From an uncultured Candidatus Saccharibacteria bacterium (GTDB lineage: Bacteria > Patescibacteriota > Minisyncoccia > Phycocordibacterales > PCTT01): a stretch of DNA of 64,000 nucleotides. The stretch is taken from contig CAZMIM010000001.1 in NCBI GenBank assembly GCA_964566505.1, positions 199,690-263,689 on the forward strand, written 5' to 3'. This document shows positions 495 to 62,478 of the stretch, piece by piece (positions within the stretch are counted from its first letter, which is position 1; every line of letters starts with the position of its first letter). Under the pieces are notes generated by a model. The model did not search any database, was not told the DNA's origin, and worked only from the letters and a program-made list of their open reading frames with translations. A program made the position numbers and the translations under genes.

Positions 495-2162
495 ATGTTT
501 AAACGACTATTTTCACGAATATATTCATACGCAAAAAGGCTCTATAACTACATCAAGAGTCTCTACAAACAATTCGGAATAATCGCGGTGCTTGTAACCG
601 TGCTTATGTTGGTAGGTCTTATTATTCTTATCGCAACTGCAGGTAATAGAGATGATGCTATTGAGCAAAACAACCAAAAGGTTGTTAAGACCGCATTTGT
701 TGCGGCACTTTCAAGTAATCAATCCCCTCTTTCTCTTATTGGGCAGATTGAATCTACAAATGAAGCAGACCTACGAGCAGAATCACAAGGAGAGATTACT
801 CGTGTGTATGCACAGCTAGGAGATTATGTGTACGCGGGCTCTGTTTTGGCAGAATTTGAAAACCAAGCAGCACGAGCACAAGTTACTCAAGCAGAGGGTG
901 CTCTAGAGGCAGCAGAGGCACAGCTACTAAAAATTCAATCGGGTTCTCGAGCAGAGGAGCAAGATATTCTTGTTCTTTCAGCTGAAGATGCACGGGTTGC
1001 ACTTGCGCAAGCACAAAATGCAGCTATCGCGGAGATTGAAAATGCATTCTCTTCAGTAGATGACGCACTTTACAACAAAGTGGATGTTCTATTTGATGGA
1101 CCACGAACATACCGACCAGAACTTTCATTTGTTGTTCCAGAAACACAAATAAAAATTGATGTTGAAAGCGGTCGTGTATCAGTAGGGCGAGTACTTTCTA
1201 TTTGGGAAGATGAGATTGACTCCCTTACCACTTCATCAGACCTACAAACTGCACTTGAAAATGCACAAGCATACACAGTACAAACACAAGACTTTCTTGA
1301 TGATGTTGCGCGTGCAGTAAACATACTTCGCCCAAATGCAGAGATTAGCGAGACCACAATCGCTACATGGAAAGCAAATGTCTCATCTGCACGGACAACT
1401 CTAAACGCAACTATTAATGCGCTCATTAGTGAAGTAAATGCTCTCAATGGAACAGAGACAGCTCTTGCTGTAGCAACAACAAACAAAGATATTGGATTCT
1501 CTGGTGGACGAAACGAGGATGTGCAAGCAGCACAGGCTCAAGTAAAACAAGCAAAAGGTGCACTCGCTGTCGCTCGTGCAAACTTTGAAAAGACAATTAT
1601 CCGCACACCAATAAGCGGAACACTTAACAGATTCGCAGTTAAACGAGGAGATTTCGTAACACTCTATGAACCTATTGCAGTAGTTTCAAACAACAACGCT
1701 CTTCTTATCAAAACATACATGACAGAGGAGGATCGTCGTGAGATAGCAGTGGGCGCAAATGTACTAGTGGAGGGTGTATACAACGGAACTGTAACTGCTA
1801 TTGCACCCGGAATTGACCCTATCACCAAAAAGATTGAAGCGACTGTTTCTATCCAAGAGGAAGATTCAACACTTCAAAATGGTGAGTCTGTGCGAATTGA
1901 TATTGTACGAAAAGATGTAACCGCATTTAATGCCAACGACCCAATCCGAGTACCAATTTCTGCACTCAAAATAGAGCCGACAAGAACAGTTGTATTTTCA
2001 CTCGATGAGAATAACGCGCTAGTAGCACACCCTGTTACAGTTGGTCTTATCGTGGGAGACAAAGTGATTATCGAGAAAGGAATCACTCCAGATATGTCTA
2101 TCGTGGTTGATGCGCGAGGACTCAAAGAAGGACAAGTGGTAGAAAAGCAAAATAACCAATAG
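495..2162 (+). CDS. efflux transporter periplasmic adaptor (HlyD/membrane-fusion family) with extended coiled-coil
   Basis: N-terminal TM; long Ala/Gln-rich coiled coil; biotinyl/lipoyl-like hairpin motif IRTPISGTLNRFAVKRGDFV; 3 bp upstream of the RND permease. Confidence 0.75.
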   Translation: MFKRLFSRIYSYAKRLYNYIKSLYKQFGIIAVLVTVLMLVGLIILIATAGNRDDAIEQNNQKVVKTAFVAALSSNQSPLSLIGQIESTNEADLRAESQGEITRVYAQLGDYVYAGSVLAEFENQAARAQVTQAEGALEAAEAQLLKIQSGSRAEEQDILVLSAEDARVALAQAQNAAIAEIENAFSSVDDALYNKVDVLFDGPRTYRPELSFVVPETQIKIDVESGRVSVGRVLSIWEDEIDSLTTSSDLQTALENAQAYTVQTQDFLDDVARAVNILRPNAEISETTIATWKANVSSARTTLNATINALISEVNALNGTETALAVATTNKDIGFSGGRNEDVQAAQAQVKQAKGALAVARANFEKTIIRTPISGTLNRFAVKRGDFVTLYEPIAVVSNNNALLIKTYMTEEDRREIAVGANVLVEGVYNGTVTAIAPGIDPITKKIEATVSIQEEDSTLQNGESVRIDIVRKDVTAFNANDPIRVPISALKIEPTRTVVFSLDENNALVAHPVTVGLIVGDKVIIEKGITPDMSIVVDARGLKEGQVVEKQNNQ

Positions 2163-2164
2163 CT

Positions 2165-5100
2165 ATGTTTTCATTTTGGTCATTTTTTCTTAAGAATAAA
2201 CGATTCAGCCAACTGATTCTCATAGCCCTTATCGGAGCAGGGCTTGTTTCTCTATTCTCTATCCCAAAAGAATCAAATCCTGAAGTAGAGGTTCCTATCG
2301 GAGTTGTGAGCACATTTCTACCTGGAGGTTCTGCAGAAGATGTAGAAACACTCATTACAAATGAGATTGAATCAGGTCTGCAAAATCTTGATGAGGTAAA
2401 GAAAATCACATCAACATCAGCATCGCGTATCTCAAGTATCGTGGTTGAATTTGATGCGAGCGCAAATATAGACAAGGCTATCCAAGACCTCAAAGACGCA
2501 GTGGACACGGTAGCACCAAACCTACCATCAGAAGCAGAAGACCCAGTAGTGGCACAAGTAGATTTCTCTGCTGAGCCAATAATGATTATCTCTGTAGCGA
2601 CCGACAGACCTGCACCAGAGGTAGTATCACTTGCACAAACAATAGAGCGAGAGCTCAAGCGTATTCCAGGTGTATCAGATGTAACTCCACAAGGACTTCG
2701 TGAGCGAGAGGTGCAAGTAATCGTAAACCAAGAGCGACTCCAAGCATTTGGACTTTCTACAGACACTGTTGTTAGAGCGCTTTCAGGAACAAACAGCTCT
2801 CTTCCAGTAGGGACAATCAAAACAAATGGAATCGTATACCCTGTTTCATTCAACGGAGACATAAAAGACCCAAATGAAATCCCTGATATTGCAATCGCAA
2901 ACAACAATGGATTCCCTATATACATTAGAGACATTGCCGATGTATCTATTGGAGTAGAGGAAGCGTCTACTATCTCTCGTATCAGTCTAGAAGTAAACCC
3001 TAGCGAGAACGCAATTTCTTTTTCAGTATTCAAACAAACAGGAGGAAATATTATAGAGACCACCCAGGCTGTAAGAGACAAACTTGAAGAGCTTCAAGAC
3101 GGAGGTGTGCTTTCTGACTCTGAAGTACTTGTTTCTTTTGATGTAGGAGAGTTCATAAAACAAGACCTTTCAAACCTTACATTCACAGCACTGCAAACAG
3201 TCCTTTTGGTAATGATTATTCTATTCTTGGCGGTTGGACTTAAAGAAGCGCTCCTTGCAGGGCTTGCTATCCCGCTTTCATTCTTGCTTTCGTTTATTGG
3301 TCTATCGGCATCTGGAAACACTGTAAACTTTGTGAGCCTTTTCTCACTTATTTTGGCGGTGGGTATTTTGGTGGACTCAGCTATTGTGATTGTTGAAGGA
3401 ATGCACGCAAATTCAATAAAGCGACAAAATGAGTCGATGAATGTTATTGCCTTTCAAACACTCAAAGAGTTCTACAAGCCACTGTTCTCAGGAACAATGA
3501 CAACCATTGCAGTGTTTTTCCCACTATTCTTTATCTCAGGTATTACTGGTGAGTTTATCGCAAGTATTCCATTTACTATGATTTTTGTGCTGACCGCATC
3601 TATTGTGGTAGCACTTGGATTCTTGCCACTTATTGCATCATCAGTCCTTAAATCACAAAGCAACAAAGAAGAAACTTCTCTTGAAGAAAAACGCGTTCGA
3701 TATTCAGACATTGTTGAGAAGTGGTACCAAAGAAAGCTGAATAAAATTCTTGGAAATAAAAAGCGGGAGAAAAAAGTAATAAAGTGGTCTGTGATTGCAT
3801 TCTTTATTGTATTTTCATTCCCTATTATCGGAATTGTTAATGTAGAATTCTTCCCACAAGAAGACTTGGATTTTGTATTTCTTGAAGTAGAAAAAGAGCG
3901 AGGAACAGTTATTGAGGATACTGATTTCGTAACACGACAAGTAGAAGAGATTTTGTATGAGAATGAAAATATTGAGTCATTTGTAACTACGGTTGGTACT
4001 GGTAGTGCGTTTGCAGGGACAGACTTTGGAGGAAGTTCTGACAATGGAAACATTGCAAATATGACCATAAACCTCAAAAAGAATCGAAAAGATTCAAGCT
4101 CAGAGGTGTCGCAACAGCTTCGCGAGGAACTCGCACTTATCAAAGAAGCAGATGTACGAGTAGTACAAACAAACAACGGACCGCCAACTGGTGCCCCTGT
4201 ACTGATTACATTTTTTGGTGACTCACTAGAAGAGCTTGAAACTCTTGCGTCACAGTCAGAAGATATACTCAAAAACATTGAAGGAACGCGTGATGTTTCT
4301 ACAAGCATTAGCGATAGCGGTACGGAGTTCCTGCTGTCTGTAGATCGCTCAAAGGCGACACAGCTTGGCCTATCTCCACTATCTATTGCACAAACACTAC
4401 GAACAGCAATCGTGGGAACGACCGCTACCACAATCAAAACTGATACTGACGATATTGATGTAGTGGTGAAGCTAAACCTTAATCCAAACTACCAAGGCCC
4501 ACATGATACAAACCGAACAACAATAGACAGCATCAGGCAGATAAGTGTGACAACACCTAGCGGTTCTGTGCTACTTGGCTCTGTACTCGATACATCACTT
4601 GATAGAAGTAGCTCAAGCATTCGACACGAGGATACAAAGCGTATCGCGAGTGTATCAAGCCAACTACAAGATGGGGCTGTCGTAGGAGCTATTGTAAGCG
4701 AGTTTCGCGCACAAATAGCAGATGGTGCACTGGTACTACCAGATACTGTTGAAATGCGTGTAGGAGGAGAAACAGAAGACGTAGACCAATCATTTAAAGA
4801 GATGGGGCTCGCATTTATTGCAGGACTTGTTTTGATGCTTGCAATACTCGTGCTTCAGTTTGATTCTATTCGATATGCCCTCTTTATACTTGCTATTATT
4901 CCATTCTCATTTATTGGAATCTTCATAGGACTCGCTCTCACAGGAAAAGCACTATCGTTCCCATCTCTTATGGGTGTGATTGCACTATCTGGAATTTTGG
5001 TAAACAACTCAATCATTCTTATTGATAAAATGAACTCTCTTCGCGAAGAGTATCCAATGCTTGCTATTCGAGATGTGGTGGTTGCGGCAAGCACATCACG

Positions 5101-5493: not shown

Positions 5494-5530
5494 AAAACCC
5501 CAAATGCAAATGATTTGCATTTGGGGTTTT
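5494..5530. terminator. bidirectional terminator built on the 21-bp palindrome AAATGCAAATGATTTGCATTT extended by CCCC/GGGG
   Basis: Perfect hairpin aaaaccccaaatgcaaatgatttgcatttggggtttt between convergent genes. Confidence 0.65.
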
Positions 5531-5550: not shown

Positions 5551-6663
5551 TTAACCAAAAGTAAATGTAAATGCTTCAAGACCAGGCTCTTCTGGGATAA
5601 GCTCGAGAACATGCTCTCCCCACGCTTCATCTTCAATAATCCGATACAACTGCTCCTCTCCTACTGTCATATAGCCCCCACTATCCACATCAGCTCCTGC
5701 TCTATCTCCTACTGGCTCTCCATCTACTAACACCTTTACTCGTACTGGCTCATCGCTTGATGCAACCATGAATACTTTTTGTGCCTGATATTTAAACACA
5801 ATAGATGCTCCCGCTTCTGTATTTTCTGCATACTCGCGTGTAACATTCCATAGACCATCAAAGTACAGAGTGCTTGTTTTTAGTGTTTTTGGAAGCTCAT
5901 AGTCACGCTCACCCTCTACTTTTTGTGTTCCATTTCCTAACCTCTCGTTTCGCCAAGCTCCAAAATAAATCTCTGGACTTCGCTTTTGGTTGCTTACAGA
6001 CTCTACATTTTCTGGATTTGAAATATCACCTGAAATCTCTGTATCGAGACCAAGACGCTCGGCTCGCTCAGCAAGTAGTCTTTGTATTACTTCTTCTGTT
6101 TCTTCATATGCGCCCTCTCCGATGTGGTCATACACCACAAAACCGTCTATATCGATAAGATACTTTCGTGGCCAGTAGCGGTTGTTATATGCATTCCATG
6201 TTCGATAATCATTATCTAGAACCACCGGATACTTTACATCAAACTGATCTACTGCTTGTTGTACATTATTGATGTCTTTTTCAAACTCAAACTCTGGAGT
6301 GTGCACCGCCACAATCTCAAGACCTTGGTCTTTATATTTCTCATACCACGCGTTTAGATACGGCAACGTTCGCTGACAGTTAATACAGCTATATGTCCAA
6401 ATATCCAGAAGCACAACCTTGTCTCCAATAAGCTCTGAGATGGTAATACCGTCCTCGTCAGTATTTATAAACCCATGTGTTTGATCTACCTCCTTTGCTC
6501 TAGGATATTTATTTAACTTTTCTTCTATGTCCATTCCCACGCTTGCCACCACATCACCTGTAGTTTGCCCACTTCCTCCTACCTTCATAGACTCAAGCCA
6601 GAATATAATCCCAACAATCGCTACAAGTGTAATTATCAATACTAATGTTTTCTGCTTTCCCAT
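5551..6663 (-). CDS. membrane-anchored thioredoxin-like thiol-disulfide oxidoreductase (TlpA/ResA-like, DipZ C-terminal-like)
   Basis: N-terminal TM; WTYSCINCQ CxxC motif in a redoxin fold; encoded downstream of ccdA. Confidence 0.7.
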   Translation of the reverse strand: MGKQKTLVLIITLVAIVGIIFWLESMKVGGSGQTTGDVVASVGMDIEEKLNKYPRAKEVDQTHGFINTDEDGITISELIGDKVVLLDIWTYSCINCQRTLPYLNAWYEKYKDQGLEIVAVHTPEFEFEKDINNVQQAVDQFDVKYPVVLDNDYRTWNAYNNRYWPRKYLIDIDGFVVYDHIGEGAYEETEEVIQRLLAERAERLGLDTEISGDISNPENVESVSNQKRSPEIYFGAWRNERLGNGTQKVEGERDYELPKTLKTSTLYFDGLWNVTREYAENTEAGASIVFKYQAQKVFMVASSDEPVRVKVLVDGEPVGDRAGADVDSGGYMTVGEEQLYRIIEDEAWGEHVLELIPEEPGLEAFTFTFG

Positions 6664-20534: not shown

Positions 20535-20586
20535 ACACAATATTATATCATTTGTAAAAAATGTTTCGTGATACAATTTAATGTAT

Positions 20587-20737
20587 GAATCCCGTAGTAT
20601 AAATTAGTTCGTTGAAGTAGTGTTAACTACTTCAACAGAGATTAATTAGATATACTTACGGGAAATGAGAGATAGACTTGGTTGTGTCGAAACCAACTTG
20701 TCTAATTAATCAAACTAATTTTTTACTACGGGATGAA
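20587..20737 (+). mobile_element. MITE-like repeat copy A (~151 bp, about 24-bp terminal inverted repeats ATCCCGTAGTA[T/A]AAATTAGTT)
   Basis: Near-identical to 22795-22946 (inverted) and 32463-32613. Internal hairpins gttgaagtagtgttaactacttcaac and ttggtttcgacacaaccaa. The terminus ...tactacgggATGAA supplies or abuts the pfkB-family start codon. Confidence 0.7.
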
Positions 20738-21728
20738 ATTCGACTTTGTATCAATCGGAGATATTGTTACAGACGCATTTATTGGTCTGCGCACAGACAA
20801 CACACAGGTCACATGTGATATCGATGGACGTCCATGCCAACTTTCAATAAATTTTGGTGACAAGCTTGAGTACAACACTCTTGATGTGATTCCAGCTGTG
20901 GGAAATAGCCCAAATGCATCGGTATCAGCACACCGACTTGGACTTTCATCTGCTCTCGTAACAAACATAGGAGATGATCGTTTTGGAAAAGAAGATTTAG
21001 AAGCACTCAAAAAAGAAGGTGTTTCCACAGATTTTGTAAAAGTTCATAAAGGACGACAGTCAAACTACCATTTCGTACTCCGGGTTGAGGCAGAAAGAAC
21101 CATTTTGGTAAAACACGAAGAATATACATATGAAATACCAAATTTTGATGAAGCACCTTCATGGATATATTTCTCATCAGTAGGAGAAAACTCAATTCCC
21201 TTTCATCACGAAATTGCTAAATACGTAACAGAAAATAATGTAAAGCTAGCGTTCCAACCTGGAACATTTCAAATAAAGCTTGGGTACGAAAAACTTAAAG
21301 ATGTTTATGGGGCTTCAGAACTATTTTTCTGTAACAAAGAAGAGGCTAAAAGAATCCTCAAAACAGACACAGATGACATGAAAGAAATACTAAAGGAAAT
21401 GCATGCACTAGGGCCATCTATAGCAATCATTACTGATGGTCCAAAGGGCGCATATGCATATGACGGAAAAGAGGGGTGGCACATGCCGATGTACCCAGAC
21501 CCAGCACCTCCTGTAGACAGAACTGGTGCCGGTGACTCTTTCTCATCTACTTTTACCTCAGCTTTGGCGCTTGGGCACGACATACCAACAGCTCTTTCAT
21601 GGGGGCCTATCAACTCTATGAGTGTAGTTCAACATGTTGGTGCACAAAAAGGACTTCTATCGCTTGAAGAGCTTAAAAAACACCTTGAAAACGCACCAGA
21701 AGATTACAAACCTGAGAAAATCATATGA
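20733..21728 (+). CDS. PfkB-family carbohydrate/nucleoside kinase (ribokinase-like)
   Basis: C-terminal DRTGAGDSFSSTF signature and N-terminal GG-like motif. Confidence 0.8.
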   Translation: MKFDFVSIGDIVTDAFIGLRTDNTQVTCDIDGRPCQLSINFGDKLEYNTLDVIPAVGNSPNASVSAHRLGLSSALVTNIGDDRFGKEDLEALKKEGVSTDFVKVHKGRQSNYHFVLRVEAERTILVKHEEYTYEIPNFDEAPSWIYFSSVGENSIPFHHEIAKYVTENNVKLAFQPGTFQIKLGYEKLKDVYGASELFFCNKEEAKRILKTDTDDMKEILKEMHALGPSIAIITDGPKGAYAYDGKEGWHMPMYPDPAPPVDRTGAGDSFSSTFTSALALGHDIPTALSWGPINSMSVVQHVGAQKGLLSLEELKKHLENAPEDYKPEKII

Positions 21729-22237: not shown

Positions 22238-22799
22238 TAACCTCTTTATATCGAAAGCAGTCAACTGTGTGATCATTCACGAGCCCTGCCGCCTGCATGA
22301 ATGCGTATATAGTAGTAGAGCCCACAAACTTCATTCCTCTCTTCTTTAAATCTTTTGATAGAGCATCAGACTCTTTTGATGTAGTGGGTATATCTTTTTG
22401 TGTTTTACATTTGTTTATTTTTGGCGCACCTCCTACAAAACCCCAAATATAATCAGAAAAGCTTCCAAACTCTTTTTGTATTTCCTGAAACACTCGAGCG
22501 TTTGTAATTGCTCCTTCTATTTTTAATCTATTTCTAATAATTCCTGCATCTTTTAGAAGTTCTGTTTTCTTTTTCGCGTCATATTTTGCGATTTTTTTAT
22601 AGTTAAAATTATCAAACACTTTTTTAAAATTTGCTCGTTTGTGTAAAATTGTTCTCCACGAAAGACCAGCTTGGAATGTATCCAAGAGCATATATTCGAA
22701 TAGCTTCTTGTCGTCATAGCATGGCACACCCCACTCTGTATCGTGGTAGGCAATCATAAGCCCATCACTTTCCTGTGGCCAGATACATCTATTTTTCAT
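22221..22799 (-). CDS. tag: DNA-3-methyladenine glycosylase I
   Basis: YHDTEWGVP, LDTFQAGLSWRTIL and zinc-binding Cys/His pattern of Tag. Confidence 0.88.
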   Translation of the reverse strand: MKNRCIWPQESDGLMIAYHDTEWGVPCYDDKKLFEYMLLDTFQAGLSWRTILHKRANFKKVFDNFNYKKIAKYDAKKKTELLKDAGIIRNRLKIEGAITNARVFQEIQKEFGSFSDYIWGFVGGAPKINKCKTQKDIPTTSKESDALSKDLKKRGMKFVGSTTIYAFMQAAGLVNDHTVDCFRYKEVIKLKR

Positions 22800-22946
22800 C
22801 CCGTAGTAAAAAATTAGTTTGATTAATTAGACAAGTTGGTTTCGACACAACCAAGTCTATCTCTCATTTCCCGTAAGTATATCTAATTAATCTCTGTTGA
22901 AGTAGTTAACACTACTTCAACGAACTAATTTATACTACGGGATTCA
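22795..22946 (-). mobile_element. MITE-like repeat copy B (inverted relative to copy A)
   Basis: Reverse complement of copy A with a few substitutions; the terminus again abuts the tag start codon (tactacgggATGAAAAAT on the minus strand). Confidence 0.7.
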
Positions 22947-23020
22947 TAGGAATAATAATATCATCACTTTTATGATATATTGATTTTAGTTCGCACCTCT
23001 AACACAAAAAGGTATATTCA

Positions 23021-23224
23021 ATGAACACGCCAACATATCTGCTTGTTACAAAAGCGCTGAAGATGACAGGGCTCAGTATTGCACTTTTTATCTTATGGGT
23101 CATTCTCATAGGATCAATTTTTGGAGAAACCTTTTCTCAAATGCCCCTATACGCTGGAATTGCTCTCAACTTTGGCGGCGCTGGTATTGGCACCTGGCAA
23201 ACAATCAAAATGCTGGGTACATAA
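23021..23224 (+). CDS. hypothetical small membrane protein
   Basis: 67 aa, two hydrophobic helices; followed by a terminator. Confidence 0.3.
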   Translation: MNTPTYLLVTKALKMTGLSIALFILWVILIGSIFGETFSQMPLYAGIALNFGGAGIGTWQTIKMLGT

Positions 23225-23242
23225 ACATGTGCCCAAAAACAC

Positions 23243-23272
23243 AACGGCTCAACTTTTTTAAGTTGAGCCGTT
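23243..23272. terminator. Rho-independent terminator (aacggctcaacttttttaagttgagccgtt)
   Basis: 12-bp perfect stem; same ACGGCTCA/TGAGCCGT stem family as 88-129 and 25226-25254. Confidence 0.6.
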
Positions 23273-23277
23273 TATCT

Positions 23278-24300
23278 TTATAACCCTTCTACTCGCCCGA
23301 GTTTGAAGCTTTCTGCGTGCGTAATGATTCTATTCATAAAAGAAACTGCCTCTACTGGATATTTACCAGATGCAGTTTCGTCAGATAGCATAACAGCACT
23401 TGAGCCGTCATATACTGCATTTGCAACATCTGAAACTTCTGCTCGTGTTGGTTCTGGGCTATTCACCATAGAAAGCATCATTTGTGTTGCCGTGATGGCG
23501 GGTGTGTCATGCCAGCGTCCATTTCTAATCATGTGCTTCTGAGTAAACGGAAGTTCCTCTACAGGTATTTCAACTCCCAAATCACCACGTGCAATCATGA
23601 TTGCGTCTGATCCTTGAATAATTCCATCCATATTATCCACAGAAAGCCTTGTCTCCATTTTTGCAATAACTTTTGCTTTACCTCCAATCATTTCTTTGAG
23701 CTCAAGAACATCTCCTTCATCTTGAACAAACGATATAGCAACAAAATCTACACCTTGAGATAACCCAAATAATACATCTTTTTTATCTTTTTCTGTTAGG
23801 CCAGATAGAGACAGTCGTGTGTCGGGTACGTTAACAGATTTACGTGAATACAAAACTCCGGCTTGAGTAACTCGAGCATAAATACGACTATCATCAACCT
23901 CTGTTACAACCAGCTTTATTGCTCCATTTGCAAGATATAGAGGTTGTTCAATCTTAATATCGCTCACCAGACTTTTGCTGTCTATAAATATTGCTTCTGT
24001 GTCATCTTGATTTATAGAAAATATAACATCCTGTCCATATGAAAGATGTACTCCTTCGTCAGATACTTTTCCCACACGAATACGGGGCCCTTGGAGATCC
24101 TGAAGAATCTTCACATTTAAGTTGTGTTTTTTGTTTATGTCTTCTATTTTTTCTTTACGAGCTAAAAACTCTTCTTCTGTACAATGTGAAAAGTTCATTC
24201 TTGCTATGTCCATCCCAGCAAGTGCAAGCTTTTCTAATGTTTCATATGATTCTGATGTTGGTCCAATAGTTGCTATTATCTTCGTTTTTCGTTTATGCAT
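23278..24300 (-). CDS. pyk: pyruvate kinase (catalytic domains only, no C-terminal regulatory domain)
   Basis: KTKIIATIGPTSES, MDIARMNFSH, MIARGDLGVEIP motifs; the ORF continues to 24426 but the start is probably MHKRK. Confidence 0.85.
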   Translation of the reverse strand: MHKRKTKIIATIGPTSESYETLEKLALAGMDIARMNFSHCTEEEFLARKEKIEDINKKHNLNVKILQDLQGPRIRVGKVSDEGVHLSYGQDVIFSINQDDTEAIFIDSKSLVSDIKIEQPLYLANGAIKLVVTEVDDSRIYARVTQAGVLYSRKSVNVPDTRLSLSGLTEKDKKDVLFGLSQGVDFVAISFVQDEGDVLELKEMIGGKAKVIAKMETRLSVDNMDGIIQGSDAIMIARGDLGVEIPVEELPFTQKHMIRNGRWHDTPAITATQMMLSMVNSPEPTRAEVSDVANAVYDGSSAVMLSDETASGKYPVEAVSFMNRIITHAESFKLGRVEGL

Positions 24301-25219: not shown

Positions 25220-25225
25220 ATAAAC

Positions 25226-25258
25226 AAACGGCTCATTTTGAAAATGAGCCGTTTATCT
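25226..25258. terminator. Rho-independent terminator (aaacggctcattttgaaaatgagccgttt), near-identical to the hairpin at 88-129
   Basis: Perfect 12-bp stem; one-base loop difference (c/g) from the first copy. Confidence 0.6.
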
Positions 25259-25473
25259 TATTCACCTATATATTCAAATCTCTTTGTTTGCTTTCCGTCT
25301 ATTTCTACCAACTCTTCAAACATCGCAATTGGTCGAACCCACAACTTAGACATATCATTGTCATATTGCGCTTCGTATACCACCAGGTCTTCAAGTGTTT
25401 CTGAGTGCTTTGCTACGCCCAACACTTTATACATCCTCCCTGATTTTGAGTGTTTATATAGTCCTGTTTTCAT
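25258..25473 (-). CDS. DUF1653 domain protein
   Basis: YKHSKSGRMYKVLGVAKHSETLEDLVVYEAQYDN...LWVRPIAMFEE matches the conserved DUF1653 pattern. Confidence 0.65.
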   Translation of the reverse strand: MKTGLYKHSKSGRMYKVLGVAKHSETLEDLVVYEAQYDNDMSKLWVRPIAMFEELVEIDGKQTKRFEYIGE

Positions 25474-32379: not shown

Positions 32380-32462
32380 GTAGTGTAATCACCATACTGA
32401 AAAATCCAGTAATAAAGGCGATTCTTGTTGCACGGTCCTTTAGCCATGTGTCCATAAAATTC

Positions 32463-32613
32463 TTCATCCTGTAGTAAAAAATTAGTTTGATTAATTAGAC
32501 AAGTTGGTTTCGACACAACCAAGTCTATGTATATCATTTCCCGTATGTCTAATTAATCTCTGTTGAAGTAGTTAGTACTACTTCAACGAACTAATTTATA
32601 CTACGGGATTCAT
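32463..32613 (-). mobile_element. MITE-like repeat copy C
   Basis: About 93% identical to copy B including both TIRs; overlaps the rsuA 3' end region; a 38-codon ORF (MKNFMDTWLK...) starts exactly at its terminus. Confidence 0.65.
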
Positions 32614-32660
32614 ATTTTAATTATACAATGTTCCAATCACCACAACCTATGTATTCCACA

Positions 32661-33980
32661 CTAAATCTCAGACAGATCCCTATCTGTAAATAGGTTAAGT
32701 GTCCACTCAAGTGCTGTTCGAGCCTTGGCACGAGCACCAAATATCTTAGAGAGATATGCTGTTCTGTATATCCACCATGCAATAAATCCAGAAAATCTCA
32801 TACCAAATAGCCTAGCGAGCGCTCCACCCTTACCAAGAGACACGATAAATCCCTTATCTTCGGCATGAAATGGAGCTCTATCTGAATTTCCTTCTACCAT
32901 ATTAAAAATATTACGAGCAGCAACAACTCCTTGCTTTACCGCAAATTGCGCTCGTGTTGGATATGCTTTTGTGTCGTCATCTCTATGTGGCACCCATCCA
33001 ATATCTCCAATAGCAAAAACATGTTCATGTGAGGGGAGAGAGAGCGCACGATTTGTCTTTACTCTACCACTACGCTCATCGAGTGAAATTTCTTTTGAAG
33101 ATTTATACATTGTATTGTTTGCTGTAACGCCAGCAGTCCATATAACAGTCCCACCACTTATGTGTGTGTCTCCTACCCACACCCCACTCTCATCAACTTT
33201 TGAAACCCGTGAGTTTAGTAATACACGTACCTTTCCTTTTGCCTCCAAAATCTCCTGCGTCTTTTTTGCAAACCATTCTTCTTCTACTGAAATAAGCTGT
33301 GCACCACCTTGAACTACATGGATAGAAGAAAGAGGGTAAAGCTCTGGATAAATTTTCCTGAGCTCCCCATTTAAAATATCCCCCATTTCACCAGCAAGCT
33401 CAACACCAGAAGGACCACCTCCAACAATAATAAATGTTAGAAGTTGTTTCTTTTTATCTTCTTCTGAAACAAGCTGTGCCTCTTCAAAGCGGTTCAGAAT
33501 ATGATTTTTGATTTTGCGTGCATCCTCCAGGTCATTCATGGTCATACAGTATTTCTCTGCTCCTTCTACACCAAAAAAGTTTGTTTTTGAGCCTGTTGCA
33601 AGAACCAAATAATCATAAGAAACTAGCCCGCCTTTTATATGATCACTATGTTCATCTGAAACACTTTGATTTAGATAAGTAATTTGCTTTCTATCAAAAT
33701 CAATCTCTGTAACCTCTCCTTCTACAAAATCATCCAAACAACACTCTGGAAGTGAGCGAATTGACTGTGTGATACTACCTGGCAAAAGGTTACCAATGGC
33801 AACCTCGTGAATCATTGGTTTGAATACAAAATAATCGTTTTTGTTGATTATTGTGATAAATACATCATCTCTATTATGAAAAAGTTCGTGCAATCCAAGA
33901 TATGTATATAGACCAGCAAAGCCAGCCCCAACGATAACTATTCGTTTTTTACCTCCACCTCGCTCTTGAATACTTGCCAT
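32661..33980 (-). CDS. ndh: type II NADH dehydrogenase (NDH-2) / FAD-dependent pyridine nucleotide-disulfide oxidoreductase
   Basis: KKRIVIVGAGFAGL and TIIVGGGPSGVE dinucleotide-binding motifs; C-terminal membrane-anchoring region. Confidence 0.82.
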   Translation of the reverse strand: MASIQERGGGKKRIVIVGAGFAGLYTYLGLHELFHNRDDVFITIINKNDYFVFKPMIHEVAIGNLLPGSITQSIRSLPECCLDDFVEGEVTEIDFDRKQITYLNQSVSDEHSDHIKGGLVSYDYLVLATGSKTNFFGVEGAEKYCMTMNDLEDARKIKNHILNRFEEAQLVSEEDKKKQLLTFIIVGGGPSGVELAGEMGDILNGELRKIYPELYPLSSIHVVQGGAQLISVEEEWFAKKTQEILEAKGKVRVLLNSRVSKVDESGVWVGDTHISGGTVIWTAGVTANNTMYKSSKEISLDERSGRVKTNRALSLPSHEHVFAIGDIGWVPHRDDDTKAYPTRAQFAVKQGVVAARNIFNMVEGNSDRAPFHAEDKGFIVSLGKGGALARLFGMRFSGFIAWWIYRTAYLSKIFGARAKARTALEWTLNLFTDRDLSEI

Positions 33981-34013
33981 ATAAACGCATTATATCAGAG
34001 AAATAAAAAAAAC

Positions 34014-34460
34014 CGTCCTATCGGCCAGCGCAACGAGGTGTTTTGGTGTAGCCCACCGTGATGGGCGACGTGCGATTCGAGCCACCCATAGGGTACTTTC
34101 TTTATCGCAACACTTCTCGTGCGCTGGCCGATCAAGGATCGGCTCAGGTGCTGTCTTCTAGCTCCTTTTATACATCCACACCAGGTGGCGCAAAAAGGGG
34201 ACGGAAGACAGACTTGTTTGTTCTGACGAAACATCGTTTTTGGATACGAGTCAGCAGCTTGTTGAACCGTGGAATACGATACAGATTAGATTCTTCGTTG
34301 ATCGAGGTACGAAGATACAGACAGTATTTTGCCCGTGCGCCCTTCGCATCGGGATGGAGATGACCATCGCGAGATCGAGTTGAATCATTTCGTCTGTTAA
34401 TTCGAAAGAACAGTGTCCTTGTCTAAGGGACTTGTGTGGAGAATGCCGGGACATTCAGTA
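34014..34460 (-). ncRNA. candidate structured non-coding RNA (unclassified), GC-rich about 450-nt intergenic block
   Basis: No credible ORF. Local GC is about 55-60% against a ~38% background. Nested helices, e.g. 34022-34037 pairs with 34116-34130 (15 bp), ATGGG/CCCAT and GTCTGTCTTC/GAAGACAG stems. Bounded by the nth terminator (about 34470-34520) and a T9 tract at 34005-34013 on the minus strand. Confidence 0.3.
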
Positions 34461-34533
34461 CAGACGTATTGAGTACGTATACGAAAAAACACATTTCTGT
34501 GTACTAGACAAAAATGTGTTTGTATACTCCTCT

Positions 34534-35208
34534 TTATTTTGATTTTGGCCACCTATTTGCCGCCTCTGGATATATTTTTGTAAGAAAATGCTCCTCACAA
34601 TCATGTTCTCTGGCAGTACACACTTCGCGTCCATATGTAATAAATCTATAGGTTAGGTCAAACCACTCATCGCGGGGTAATAACCCCATTAAATCTCTCT
34701 CAATAATGTCAGGATTCTTTGAATCCGTAAGGTCAAATTTTTGCGCAAACCTTCGCACATGTGTGTCCACCGCAATACCTTCCACCACATCATATGCATT
34801 ACCAAGAACTACATTTGCGGTCTTTCGTCCCACACCTGGAAGCTCACGCATTTCCTCCATAGTACGAGGAACTACCCCACCATATTTCTCAACAAGCGCT
34901 TTTGCCATGCCTATAATATTTTTTGCTTTGTTTTTATAAAAACCAGTAGAGTAAATATCTTTTTGAAACTCTTCTAAGTCTGCATTCGCATAATCCTCTG
35001 CAGTTTTGTACTTTTGAAACAAATCTTTTGTCACCATATTCACCCGCTCATCAGTACATTGCGCAGATAAAATAACAGCCACAAGCATCTCTAGTGGGTT
35101 TGAATATTCAAGAACTGTTTTTATCTTTCCTGGATAAGCTTCTTTGAGTGCTTTTGAGATTTTTTGTGCACGTTCTTTTCGCTCTTTATGTTTTTCCTTA
35201 TCAGACAT
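34534..35208 (-). CDS. nth: endonuclease III-like HhH-GPD DNA glycosylase
   Basis: HhH motif LPGVGRKTANVVL; HhH-GPD fold. Only two C-terminal Cys, so possibly lacks a complete FeS cluster. Confidence 0.75.
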   Translation of the reverse strand: MSDKEKHKERKERAQKISKALKEAYPGKIKTVLEYSNPLEMLVAVILSAQCTDERVNMVTKDLFQKYKTAEDYANADLEEFQKDIYSTGFYKNKAKNIIGMAKALVEKYGGVVPRTMEEMRELPGVGRKTANVVLGNAYDVVEGIAVDTHVRRFAQKFDLTDSKNPDIIERDLMGLLPRDEWFDLTYRFITYGREVCTAREHDCEEHFLTKIYPEAANRWPKSK

Positions 35209-36124: not shown

Positions 36125-36145
36125 AAATGCAAATGATTTGCATTT
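36125..36145. promoter_or_regulatory. perfect 10-1-10 palindrome AAATGCAAATgATTTGCATTT in the fur/ZIP divergent promoter; candidate Fur/Zur operator
   Basis: Lies 38 bp upstream of the ZIP ATG and 55 bp upstream of the fur start; the same 21-mer recurs at 5502-5522 and 61204-61224. Confidence 0.4.
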
Positions 36146-47173: not shown

Positions 47174-47503
47174 AGATTTTTTAATGACGAATAAATCTTA
47201 TGGCGGGTAACAAAAAGCCCGCCACCAAGTAGAGCCGAAGCTCATATCCCAAGTTTCCCTGGAATAGCTCAAGGAGAGACCCTTGATGACGGGTTCTTTA
47301 TTCTCCTTGAGACTTTTATATTCGGACCATACCGCCACAAACGTGTCGGGTTAGGTCGCTATATTGTGATGTCGAGCTCTTCGCTCAACATATACATAAT
47401 ATCGCTAAATAAAGGTGGTGTTAAGCAAGAAGCGAGTATGCGACGAATCACTGGTTCTGCATAGCTTAGCAAGACTAGTTTTCTCTGGCATTAATGGTTC
47501 CCT

Positions 47504-52183: not shown

Positions 52184-52257
52184 TGGCTGCCGGACAGGGA
52201 CTCGAACCCCGATTTCTTGGACCAAAACCAAGCGTCCTGCCATTAGACGATCCGGCA
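52184..52257 (-). tRNA. tRNA-Gln (anticodon UUG), U1-A72 pair, G73, CCA encoded
   Basis: UGCCGGA/UCCGGCA acceptor, anticodon stem CUUGG/CCAAG with loop UUUUGGU, T-arm CGGGGUUCGAGUCCCUG. Confidence 0.85.
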
Positions 52258-52316
52258 ATGTATTTAATTTTTATATATCTGCCAAATTTCAAGGTCCAAC
52301 TTGGACCGCAATACAA

Positions 52317-52349
52317 AATCTTGCAAGCATCCTACCATTAGACGATCCG
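52317..52349 (-). repeat. 30-bp direct duplicate (1 mismatch) of the tRNA-Gln 5' end plus 4-nt upstream flank; head of a degenerate pseudo-tRNA (about 52262-52349)
   Basis: cct[g/a]ccattagacgatccggcaatgtatt occurs at 52232-52264 and 52317-52349; the downstream part has lost the anticodon and T-arm pairing. Confidence 0.6.
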
Positions 52350-52419
52350 GCAATGTATTACCTAAAAACTGGCAATATACAAAACAGATTACCGTAGTAA
52401 TCTGCTTTGTGCAACGAAT

Positions 52420-60755: not shown

Positions 60756-61205
60756 ATGCATGACAAAATACAACAACAAATGCAGGACGCTCTCAAAGCG
60801 CGAGACGAGCTAAGACTCTCTGTGCTTCGAGGAATGATTTCTGCATTTACAAATGAGCTTGTGGCAACAAAAAGAACACCGCAAGAAAAGCTAGCGGATG
60901 ACGAGGTTATTGCAGTTATTACTCGACTCGCAAAGCAAAGAAAAGAGTCTATTACACAGTTTAATGCTGGAAATCGACCTGATTTAGCAGAAAAAGAAGA
61001 AAAAGAGCTCTCTATTCTCCAAGAGTACCTCCCTGAAATGATAAGTATGGATGAAATAAAGAAGGTTGTGGAAGAGAAAAAATCTTCACTTGGTGTAGAA
61101 GACAAAAGCAAAATGGGAATGCTTATGGGAGCTGTTATGGGAGAATTGAAAGGAAAAGCAGAAGGAAATGACGTAAAACAAGCTGTAGAAGAAGCTCTTT
61201 CCTAA
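60756..61205 (+). CDS. yqeY: GatB/YqeY domain protein
   Basis: MQDALKARDELRLSVLRGMISAFTNE ... helical YqeY domain; the ORF extends upstream to 60705. Confidence 0.78.
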   Translation: MHDKIQQQMQDALKARDELRLSVLRGMISAFTNELVATKRTPQEKLADDEVIAVITRLAKQRKESITQFNAGNRPDLAEKEEKELSILQEYLPEMISMDEIKKVVEEKKSSLGVEDKSKMGMLMGAVMGELKGKAEGNDVKQAVEEALS

Positions 61206-61224
61206 ATGCAAATGATTTGCATTT
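61204..61224. repeat. third copy of the 21-bp palindrome AAATGCAAATGATTTGCATTT, overlapping the yqeY stop codon
   Basis: Identical 21-mer to 5502-5522 and 36125-36145; followed by a separate terminator at 61231-61256. Confidence 0.6.
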
Positions 61225-61544: not shown

Positions 61545-62195
61545 TTATTTTATTGAGCTTTTAAGTGATTGTAGTTCTAAATCTTGTGGAAGCTCCTTGA
61601 TTCCAAGGTTTACAAAATCGCGTGCTTTCTTTGTATCTTTTAATACATGTTGGAAAAACTCCACAGCCTTGAAATATGTTGGGAGATATTTAGGCGCAAT
61701 CTGTTGAGCTTTATTGTAATACTCTTCTGCCTTTGTATAATCTCGCAAGTCATATGCATAAAGATCCGCCAAGTTAGCCGCTACAATAGCATTGCCAGGC
61801 TCTATGGCAAGTACGTACAACCACACTTCCTCTGCATCAGAATATGCTCCTGCATTCTTCCAATATATACCAATGTCAATCCATGCATCTGTGTTATATA
61901 TGTTTTCTTTTGCCATATTTATAACAAATTGAAGAAAATCCTTTGACTGCTTTGAAAGCTTTGATATATCGATGTTTCTGTCTAACGATGGAGCTTCAAC
62001 GCCTGAATCAGTATCCACAATAGGCACAACCTCAATAGTTTCCTCTATGTTTAGAATACCGTCTGCTACATCTTCTGTATCTTCTGTTGGGCTTTTATCT
62101 ATATCACCATCTAATGTATTCATCTGATATACAGCCCCTGCAATAATAAGAGCAAGAATAACTGCCAATATAATTATTATGTATCTATATTTCAT
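61545..62195 (-). CDS. membrane-anchored tetratricopeptide-repeat protein
   Basis: N-terminal TM; TPR-like helical repeats (AEEYYNKAQQIAPKY...). Confidence 0.6.
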   Translation of the reverse strand: MKYRYIIIILAVILALIIAGAVYQMNTLDGDIDKSPTEDTEDVADGILNIEETIEVVPIVDTDSGVEAPSLDRNIDISKLSKQSKDFLQFVINMAKENIYNTDAWIDIGIYWKNAGAYSDAEEVWLYVLAIEPGNAIVAANLADLYAYDLRDYTKAEEYYNKAQQIAPKYLPTYFKAVEFFQHVLKDTKKARDFVNLGIKELPQDLELQSLKSSIK

Positions 62196-62420
62196 CCCGT
62201 TAGTAATTATTTATTATAATCTTTTTTTTCATTTGGCGTATCTTTCTAACAATACGTAATTCATTATATCCCGTTATTTTATTGAATTACTAACGGGACG
62301 AATGATACGGCCATTATATCAACATTTCCCTCTTTGATAAGCATCCTATCAGTTTGGGAGAGTCAGACTCTCCCAAACTTAAATAAACTCGGGTACACCC
62401 TGAATAAACTCGGGTACACA

Positions 62421-62450
62421 AAAACCCCGCCGAAGCGGGGTTTTTGTTAG
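62421..62450 (-). terminator. Rho-independent terminator (aaaaccccgccgaagcggggttttt)
   Basis: GC-rich 8-bp stem with flanking A/T runs, downstream of the surface-protein gene. Confidence 0.6.
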
Positions 62451-62478
62451 TTCGAGATTACTCGCAACTAATTAAGAA

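Follow-up and report, generated by a model that had tools for sequence, protein, structure and literature searches.

Between nth and ndh in an uncultured Candidatus Saccharibacteria bacterium: a possible lineage-specific non-coding insertion with a candidate three-way-junction terminator module

What is the DNA that separates nth, the gene of endonuclease III, from ndh, the gene of an NDH-2-type (type II) NADH dehydrogenase, in contig CAZMIM010000001.1? The window, i.e. the whole stretch of 64,000 nucleotides analysed here, holds an nth–ndh intergenic gap of 553 bp (33981–34533). A first-pass annotation had described this gap as about 550 bp long and without a plausible open reading frame (ORF), and had proposed that some 450 nt of it form a highly structured, large non-coding RNA. 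The length and the non-coding nature of the gap are confirmed. The large RNA is not, as half of the block is unstructured and the matching middle is neutral in L009 and L100, two relatives with a counterpart of the gap. We prefer to see the gap as a non-coding insertion specific to the clade, with a 3′ module that would be a minus-strand RNA structure and would end transcription before a predicted leaderless ndh promoter, a reading held tentatively and with somewhat less than even confidence. The element looks like an orphan structured RNA or terminator module, small and lineage-specific, and not like a 450-nt ornate RNA.

Compared with shuffled sequences, the whole block folds well on both strands (z −7.1 on the minus strand, which is the strand of both genes, and −6.5 on the plus strand). 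Significant folding is limited to three parts, namely the nth terminator, a long irregular hairpin (hairpin E) and a 3′ domain (Table 1). The central 256 nt reach z −1.01 on the minus and −1.24 on the plus strand, where 33 and 20 of 200 shuffles, respectively, fold as well. A scan in 120-nt windows agrees that the centre of the gap has no significant structure; only two small hairpins are present there (34456–34441 with the loop CCCG, and 34431–34415). The structured share is about 40% of the gap length, and an unusually stable fold is found only in the last ~210 bases. Thus, the fold signal that had been ascribed to a continuous ~450-nt block is local. The G+C content of the gap is 46%, that of the window 40.2%. 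The local value of ~60% reported earlier is correct over ~100 nt only, around 34021–34120, with 62% in one 60-nt window (34021–34080) and no more than 59% in any 100 nt. No other non-coding stretch of the window is as rich in G+C as the 3′ domain, which lies at the 99.9th percentile among 100–150-nt windows.

Read on the minus strand, the 3′ domain folds into a three-way junction. Its closing stem P1 has ~27 bp (34145–34109 with 34042–34010) including a core of 13 perfect pairs (34020–34032/34120–34132); it is the long stem of the first-pass annotation, and is longer than proposed there. Arm P2 pairs 34108–34104 with 34076–34072 and contains an inner hairpin (34095–34091/34087–34083), arm P3 pairs 34066–34061 with 34056–34051 under the loop CACG, and the 3′ junction strand is A-rich. 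Inner helices suggested before (GTAGCCC/GGGTAC and ATGGG/CCCAT) are not preferred, and forcing them costs ~20–25 kcal/mol. Hairpin E consists of the helices 34211–34204/34158–34151, 34198–34193/34169–34164, 34192–34189/34174–34171 and 34188–34185/34179–34176, the outermost being the previously noticed pairing of CTGTCTTC with GAAGACAG. The nth terminator is extended by GUAUAC/GUAUAC (34527–34522/34482–34477). As to the minus-strand framing of the block, the nth terminator (34487–34521, then T6) is where it had been placed, while the downstream T-run is T8 (34013–34006) and not T9. P1 together with U8 has the signature of an intrinsic terminator, and a terminator-like site was called at 34026–34011 on the minus strand.

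On the minus strand the 3′ domain is more stable than on the plus strand (−70.5 versus −63.8 kcal/mol), and its interior taken alone is significant on the minus strand only (z −2.14 versus −0.29). Hairpin E and the whole block are slightly more stable on the plus strand, which leaves the fold evidence on strand mixed. Terminator-like sites, both in the window gap and in the gaps of relatives, are all on the gene strand. The only promoter-like element between nth and ndh is TGATATAAT, an extended −10 element downstream of the structured block. TAnnnT hexamers located 6–8 nt before the ndh ATG are also present in L001, L005, L009 and L006. The ndh start regions carry −10 hexamers of the form TATAAT, TATACT or TAAAAT and no Shine-Dalgarno sequence in all lineages examined. 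From this pattern the ndh mRNA appears to be leaderless or nearly so, with a predicted start downstream of the structured element. Since the inferred promoter lies downstream of it, the block would not be an ndh leader. A cis-regulatory leader or riboswitch of ndh was rejected on the same ground: the block is upstream of the predicted promoter and would be outside the 5′ untranslated region, given a start site deduced from sequence.

There is no sign of a protein in the gap. Pfam matched none of the three gap ORFs (67–101 aa) nor any other long stop-to-stop frame, blastp of frame translations across lineages found no peptide in common between the window gap and the syntenic gaps of relatives, and tblastn into the gap with every ORF of the window and every protein retrieved, among them a protease of L005, returned only noise. 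A decayed protein gene or pseudogene was rejected, no Pfam or tblastn trace being present in any frame. With respect to known RNAs, Rfam 15 gave no match in the gap at the gathering score on either strand. The library includes RNase P, tmRNA, SRP, 6S, ROOL, GOLLD, HEARO, raiA, OLE, group I and II introns and riboswitches. The covariance models of RNase P, tmRNA, SRP and 6S thus bear out what had been concluded by eye, and the large ornate families to which the first-pass annotation had pointed as a check (ROOL, GOLLD, HEARO and raiA) do not match either. At E ≤ 10 six chance matches were obtained (E-values of at least 1.6; 14–19 bits compared with gathering scores of 40–100), three of which are microRNA families on the nth terminator hairpin. 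No Rfam match was found at E ≤ 10 for the L009 locus and the L001 gap, or at E ≤ 1 for the L005 locus. ARAGORN called no tRNA-like or tmRNA gene in the gap at the default or 80% thresholds, and only implausible ones at 60%. A literature search on structured RNAs of the candidate phyla radiation (CPR) returned nothing.

Several other identities were considered and dismissed. Tandem Repeats Finder at a score threshold of 30 detected no tandem repeats in the gap and there is no direct-repeat family, which rules out a CRISPR or TIGR-type guide array. Class C group II introns insert after terminators, and without an ORF they measure ~400 nt. A group II intron remnant was rejected; the gap has no domain V-like hairpin and no Rfam match, the closest feature, GAGCCGAUC-CUU-GAUCGGC, being only 7 bp with a triloop. 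A small RNA controlled by Fur/Zur was rejected, since the gap does not contain the 19-bp palindrome that occurs between fur and zip, and so was a replication origin, as there is no skew switch.

How is the gap distributed among relatives? The zip-fur-VKOR-nth-ndh-rluB cluster is conserved, and in most relatives nth and ndh almost touch. Large gaps of 548–728 bp are found in five lineages of the same clade (the window, L001, L005, L009 and L100). The gap cores of the window, L001, L005 and L009 are 6–18 GC points above the surrounding locus, and the whole L100 gap has 46% GC compared with 36%. Each large gap ends in a long stem and a U-run, on the gene strand and right before the ndh promoter. 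In L005 a trypsin-like protease gene (L005:2144–3055) lies between nth and the large gap, and the junction thus accepts insertions. At the level of sequence the gaps do not resemble each other. With a word size of 7, blastn among syntenic gaps gave E-values of at least 0.056 and no alignable match to the window gap. Apart from the L009/L100 pair, alignments of gaps compared with block-preserving shuffles reach z ≤ 1.9, and the only shared k-mer is GAGCCG. A single-sequence covariance model of the window 3′ domain scores the 3′ domains of relatives at 6.5–8.8 bits, equal to random hairpins. Scans of genome contigs for further relatives found none in one case and only NDH-2 at 30–38% identity in the other. 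The first-pass annotation had looked to conservation and covariation in relatives as a test of its RNA; for the window sequence these are largely lacking, and no relative has an alignable copy.

The alignable pair is L009 and L100, in which Ndh is 89% identical. The alignment of the two gaps spans 691 nt with 70% identity, compared with 48% at the 4-fold degenerate sites of ndh. Conservation in the gap is a mosaic: identity is 62–87% in the first ~300 columns and 79–89% in columns 551–700, and it is ~50%, i.e. neutral, in columns 351–550. In this pair, the 3′ domain is a three-way junction with a closing stem of 19 bp and a U6 tail. Among its 36 pairs, 97% of cells remain paired, with 4 double (compensatory) changes (three in P1 and one in P3), 5 one-sided wobble-compatible changes and 2 broken cells, both in P2; slid controls give 0–1 double changes. 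Neutral sites are saturated between the two, yet arm P2 has kept ~90% identity. In the 5′ part, a hairpin of 28 pairs capped by the loop CCUCC(A)AA shows 1 compensatory and 4 wobble-compatible changes and no broken pair. This hairpin lies at L009:465–541 and L100:4262–4376; the loop is complementary to the Shine-Dalgarno sequence, and the top of the hairpin is duplicated in L100. A conserved single-stranded stretch, AAAACCCGACCCUGGCAAA, comes after the hairpin in both. At the RNA level the wobble changes are neutral on the gene strand only. When the minimum-free-energy fold of the L009 gap was projected onto L100, only the 3′ domain received support. Judged by these substitutions, the L009/L100 gap encodes RNA structures under selection with a neutral spacer between them. 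This is a first small covariation foothold, consisting of a three-way-junction terminator and a CCUCCAA-loop hairpin.

Does the foothold extend to the window? A model built from the 3′ domain of L009 and L100 weakly matches window positions 34017–34130 on the minus strand with 18.6 bits (E 0.017) and aligns the whole three-way junction. The match is compatible with homology of the two 3′ domains without proving it. The model of the 5′ hairpin has no match in the window, L001 or L005, and local alignment of the 3′ part of the window gap with L100 is marginal (p ~0.06).

On the reading that we prefer, the element would have been inserted between two genes, nth and ndh, that were ancestrally adjacent. 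In minus-strand order it would comprise the nth terminator, a spacer of ~250 nt without structure, the hairpin of 70 nt, the 136-nt three-way-junction domain and U8. Read-through of the nth terminator, or a start at an unrecognised promoter, would give a non-coding RNA with a stable 3′ end of ~210 nt formed by hairpin E and the junction domain, and the central ~250 nt would behave as a spacer, like the middle of the L009/L100 gap. Termination at the closing stem and U8 would occur ~10 nt ahead of the extended −10 element of ndh. As such a transcript would end ahead of the ndh promoter, the element would also uncouple ndh from the fur-VKOR-nth operon. The junction arms probably make up a protein- or RNA-binding surface and are more than terminator filling, because P2 of L009 and L100 has stayed so similar at saturated neutral divergence. 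To our knowledge, almost no regulatory RNAs are known in these organisms. Should the 3′ module prove to be a real RNA, it would rank among the very few regulatory or structural RNA candidates of CPR/Patescibacteria beyond the universal ones.

A number of observations weigh against this reading. A scan for sigma-70-type promoters found none in the gap on either strand; in the same type of scan the tRNA genes of the window show canonical TTGAAA/TATAAT promoters. Many relatives, with gaps of 18–146 bp, do not have the element, and no sequence or structure homolog of it was found in the scans of relatives, phages, plasmids and metagenomes. The gap-bearing lineages are not monophyletic in the Ndh tree, where one gain and one loss are as parsimonious as two independent gains. 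The covariation comes from two sequences of another lineage than the window and has low power. The L009/L100 model gives higher scores, 24 and 21 bits, to two plain terminators at other places of the window, which match its stem only. Intergenic regions of the window mostly have z-scores of −3 to −9, partly due to a three-copy palindromic repeat and repeated terminator hairpins. In this genome a strongly negative fold z-score and a GC bump are insufficient to call a large non-coding RNA, because most intergenic regions are rich in hairpins and some hold mobile repeats.

What else could the gap be? It may be inert or selfish DNA, that is a permissive insertion site with a pile-up of foreign or mobile fragments and incidental terminator activity, although we find this rather unlikely. 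Included in such a pile-up would be a 136-bp palindromic element resembling the miniature inverted-repeat transposable elements (MITEs). Palindromic miniature mobile elements are known as the MITE, repetitive extragenic palindromic (REP) and Correia types; the 3′ domain has in common with them an imperfect ~27-bp terminal inverted repeat (34010–34042 complementary to 34109–34145) round ~80 nt and a site that varies between relatives. Mutually unalignable gaps, the L005 protease gene inserted at the same junction, the frequency of gapless junctions and a palindromic repeat that this genome carries between genes at three places, including one immediately downstream of ndh, all speak for inert DNA, as do the unstructured centre and a GC content above host level, which fits a foreign origin. 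However, no part of the block has a second copy within the 64 kb, and blastn of the gap against phage and plasmid collections found no similarity. When metagenome contigs of the Joint Genome Institute (JGI) were scanned for the exact 13-bp core pattern of P1, there were only two matches, both unrelated (a TPR-like gene and an assembly fold-back). Unlike a MITE, the 3′ domain has ~56% GC, no target-site duplication at its ends (the flanks are AAAAAAAA and CTCAGGTG) and an interior that folds well on one strand only, whereas the palindromic repeat of the window is AT-rich. Purifying selection on the L009/L100 counterpart, with wobble changes that are neutral only as gene-strand RNA, is also difficult to reconcile with inert DNA. 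A role purely in cis, as an elaborate insulator or additional terminator, preceded by a hairpin, that shields the leaderless ndh promoter from fur-VKOR-nth read-through and yields no independent RNA product, we regard as unlikely. The position of the stem and U8 just ahead of the −10 element, the failure to find a promoter for the element, and the recurrence of a long stem and U-run before ndh in every gap-bearing lineage would all be expected of it. Yet nth already has a good terminator 470 nt upstream, the L001 gap starts with a near-consensus promoter (TTGACA-17-TATACT, 11/12 matches), and a terminator has no need of a conserved three-way junction such as that of L009 and L100 with its P2 arm; these two also keep the CCUCCAA-loop 5′ hairpin.

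A bolder view, that a fast-evolving family of non-coding RNAs is located between nth and ndh in a small Parcubacteria-like clade, with the window element as a divergent member of this new family, is doubtful. Under it, the shared piece would be only the long-stemmed three-way-junction 3′ domain, doubling as a terminator, and the 5′ parts would be lineage-specific effector modules; the effector module of L009 and L100 would be the hairpin with the anti-Shine-Dalgarno-like CCUCCAA loop. A plus-strand RNA that spans the junction domain and hairpin E and ends either in the U-rich stretch that follows 34211 or at a bidirectional nth terminator is very improbable. The whole block and hairpin E do fold slightly better on that strand, which is G-rich over 34200–34500 and has UUGUUUGUU after hairpin E, but no plus-strand promoter was found in the gap, the minus strand gives the better fold for the junction domain and for its interior, and both the terminator-like sites and the L009/L100 wobble pattern fit the gene strand. 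Least credible of all are a known family (RNase P, tmRNA, 6S, SRP, a group II intron remnant or a riboswitch) so diverged that its model misses it, and the remains of a protein-coding gene. Divergence is frequent among CPR RNAs, and the size of the gap is within the RNase P/tmRNA range. Against this stand the negative Rfam, ARAGORN, tandem-repeat, Pfam and tblastn results given above; moreover, sister lineages would be expected to have a universal RNA at this place, and in a form that can be aligned between them.

Among known systems, the 3′ module is closest to intrinsic terminators and to the terminator-containing 3′ domains of small RNAs. Like them, it has on the gene strand a GC-rich stem with a U-run immediately behind it, and it closes a non-coding stretch just ahead of the next promoter. 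It differs in its size, being 136 nt with a ~27-bp stem round a three-way junction where a terminator has a 5–14-bp hairpin with a 3–8-nt loop, and in that the junction arms are conserved in sequence in L009 and L100. The nth terminator itself fits the simple-hairpin form. Orphan GC-rich intergenic RNA motifs of AT-rich genomes have been found by plots of intergenic length versus GC content. Like these candidates, the gap is long, intergenic and non-coding, with a GC content above that of the genome, a strong predicted fold and no assigned function. Such motifs are defined by many covarying homologs, whereas the window element has no alignable homolog and is structured over ~40% of its length. 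A curated motif of this window, LOOT RNA (RF03000), is found at 47231–47357 on the minus strand in a 330-bp intergenic region and scores 51.8 bits compared with a gathering score of 46.4. C-rich, anti-Shine-Dalgarno-like hairpin loops of Rsa-type small RNAs are the basis of the UCCC-loop mechanism. When the Rsa RNAs of Staphylococcus (PMC2790875) are taken as a small-RNA comparison, the L009/L100 counterpart is similar in having the covariation-supported hairpin with the loop CCUCC(A)AA, duplicated in L100. The window element differs, since it has no such hairpin, only a UCCC-containing 4-nt loop at 34450–34447 that is not significant.

The genes on both sides of the gap were identified by Pfam (Table 1). 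In the window, nth is the final gene of the fur-VKOR-nth operon, within a zip/fur-VKOR-nth cluster. The nearest relatives of Ndh and Nth are metagenomic proteins with identities of at most 61% and 67%, respectively. Those with a taxon label belong to Candidatus Ryanbacteria, Harrisonbacteria, Paceibacterota and Minisyncoccia, and because of these taxa the genome is taken to be of the CPR/Parcubacteria type.

Table 1. Features of the nth–ndh locus in the window and the corresponding gaps and ndh start regions of relatives
Feature	Position or length	Strand	Properties
nth (endonuclease III)	34534–35208	−	ORF of 224 aa; Pfam HhH-GPD (4.9e-28) and HHH; upstream bound of gap
nth intrinsic terminator	34477–34527	−	14-bp hairpin 34521–34508/34500–34487, then U6; terminator scan, inverted repeat, helix list
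Central spacer	34217–34472	−	256 nt; 46% GC; no significant fold, promoter or coding signal
Hairpin E, long irregular	34146–34218	−	−25.2 kcal/mol; z −3.81; 0/200 shuffles as good
3′ three-way-junction ('Y') domain	34010–34145	−	136 nt; −70.5 kcal/mol; z −7.16 (folded 34008–34147)
U8 tract	34006–34013	−	3′ end of P1; overlaps outermost G-U/A-U pairs (34010–34015)
ndh extended −10 element TGATATAAT	33989–33997	−	pattern scan; 8 nt upstream of ATG at 33980
ndh (NDH-2-type NADH dehydrogenase)	32661–33980	−	ORF of 439 aa; Pfam Pyr_redox_2 (2e-34), weak NDH2_C; downstream bound of gap
ndh start region, window	33978–33997	−	
ndh start region, L001	~5985–6003		
ndh start region, L009	~1010–1029		
ndh start region, L005	~3625–3642		
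ndh start region, L006	~2683–2700		
nth–ndh gap, window	553 bp		fold z −7.1
nth–ndh gap, L001	548 bp		fold z −6.9
nth–ndh gap, L005	584 bp		after inserted trypsin-like gene; fold z −4.7
nth–ndh gap, L009	641 bp		fold z −6.8
nth–ndh gap, L100	728 bp		
nth–ndh gap, L097	18 bp		
nth–ndh gap, L010	24 bp		
nth–ndh gap, L006	32 bp		
nth–ndh gap, L096	35 bp		
nth–ndh gap, L101	78 bp		
nth–ndh gap, L091	146 bp		only a terminator

Other repeated elements were noticed in the window. The palindromic repeat mentioned above is 165–170 nt long, with copies 94–98% identical at 20569–20738, 22794–22963 (opposite orientation) and 32459–32620, the last just downstream of ndh, and possibly at 62175–62318. It has the terminal inverted repeats CATCCCGTAGTA...TACTACGGGAT and resembles a MITE-type mobile element. 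A terminator-like hairpin, AAACGGCTCATTTT(C/G)AAAATGAGCCGTT, recurs in three intergenic regions (91–135, 23241–23285 and 25222–25266). Two intergenic regions fold as well as or better than the gap, 62196–62478 (z −8.7/−7.1) and 22800–23277 (z −7.7/−5.6). The signal of the latter comes partly from the repeat and the repeated terminator; the former holds two long inverted repeats, for which we have no explanation.

The perfect 19-bp palindrome AATGCAAATGATTTGCATT occurs at 5503–5521, 36126–36144 and 61205–61223, three times compared with 0.11 expected. It is likely to be the operator of the Fur/Zur-type regulator encoded next to it, one copy being located in the divergent fur-zip intergenic region. 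Finally, a 36-nt stretch over the 5′ part of the tRNA-Gln gene (52184–52257, minus strand), 52229–52264, is repeated 95 nt away at 52324–52359 with 94% identity. It amounts to a partial duplication of the tRNA such as integrating elements leave behind.

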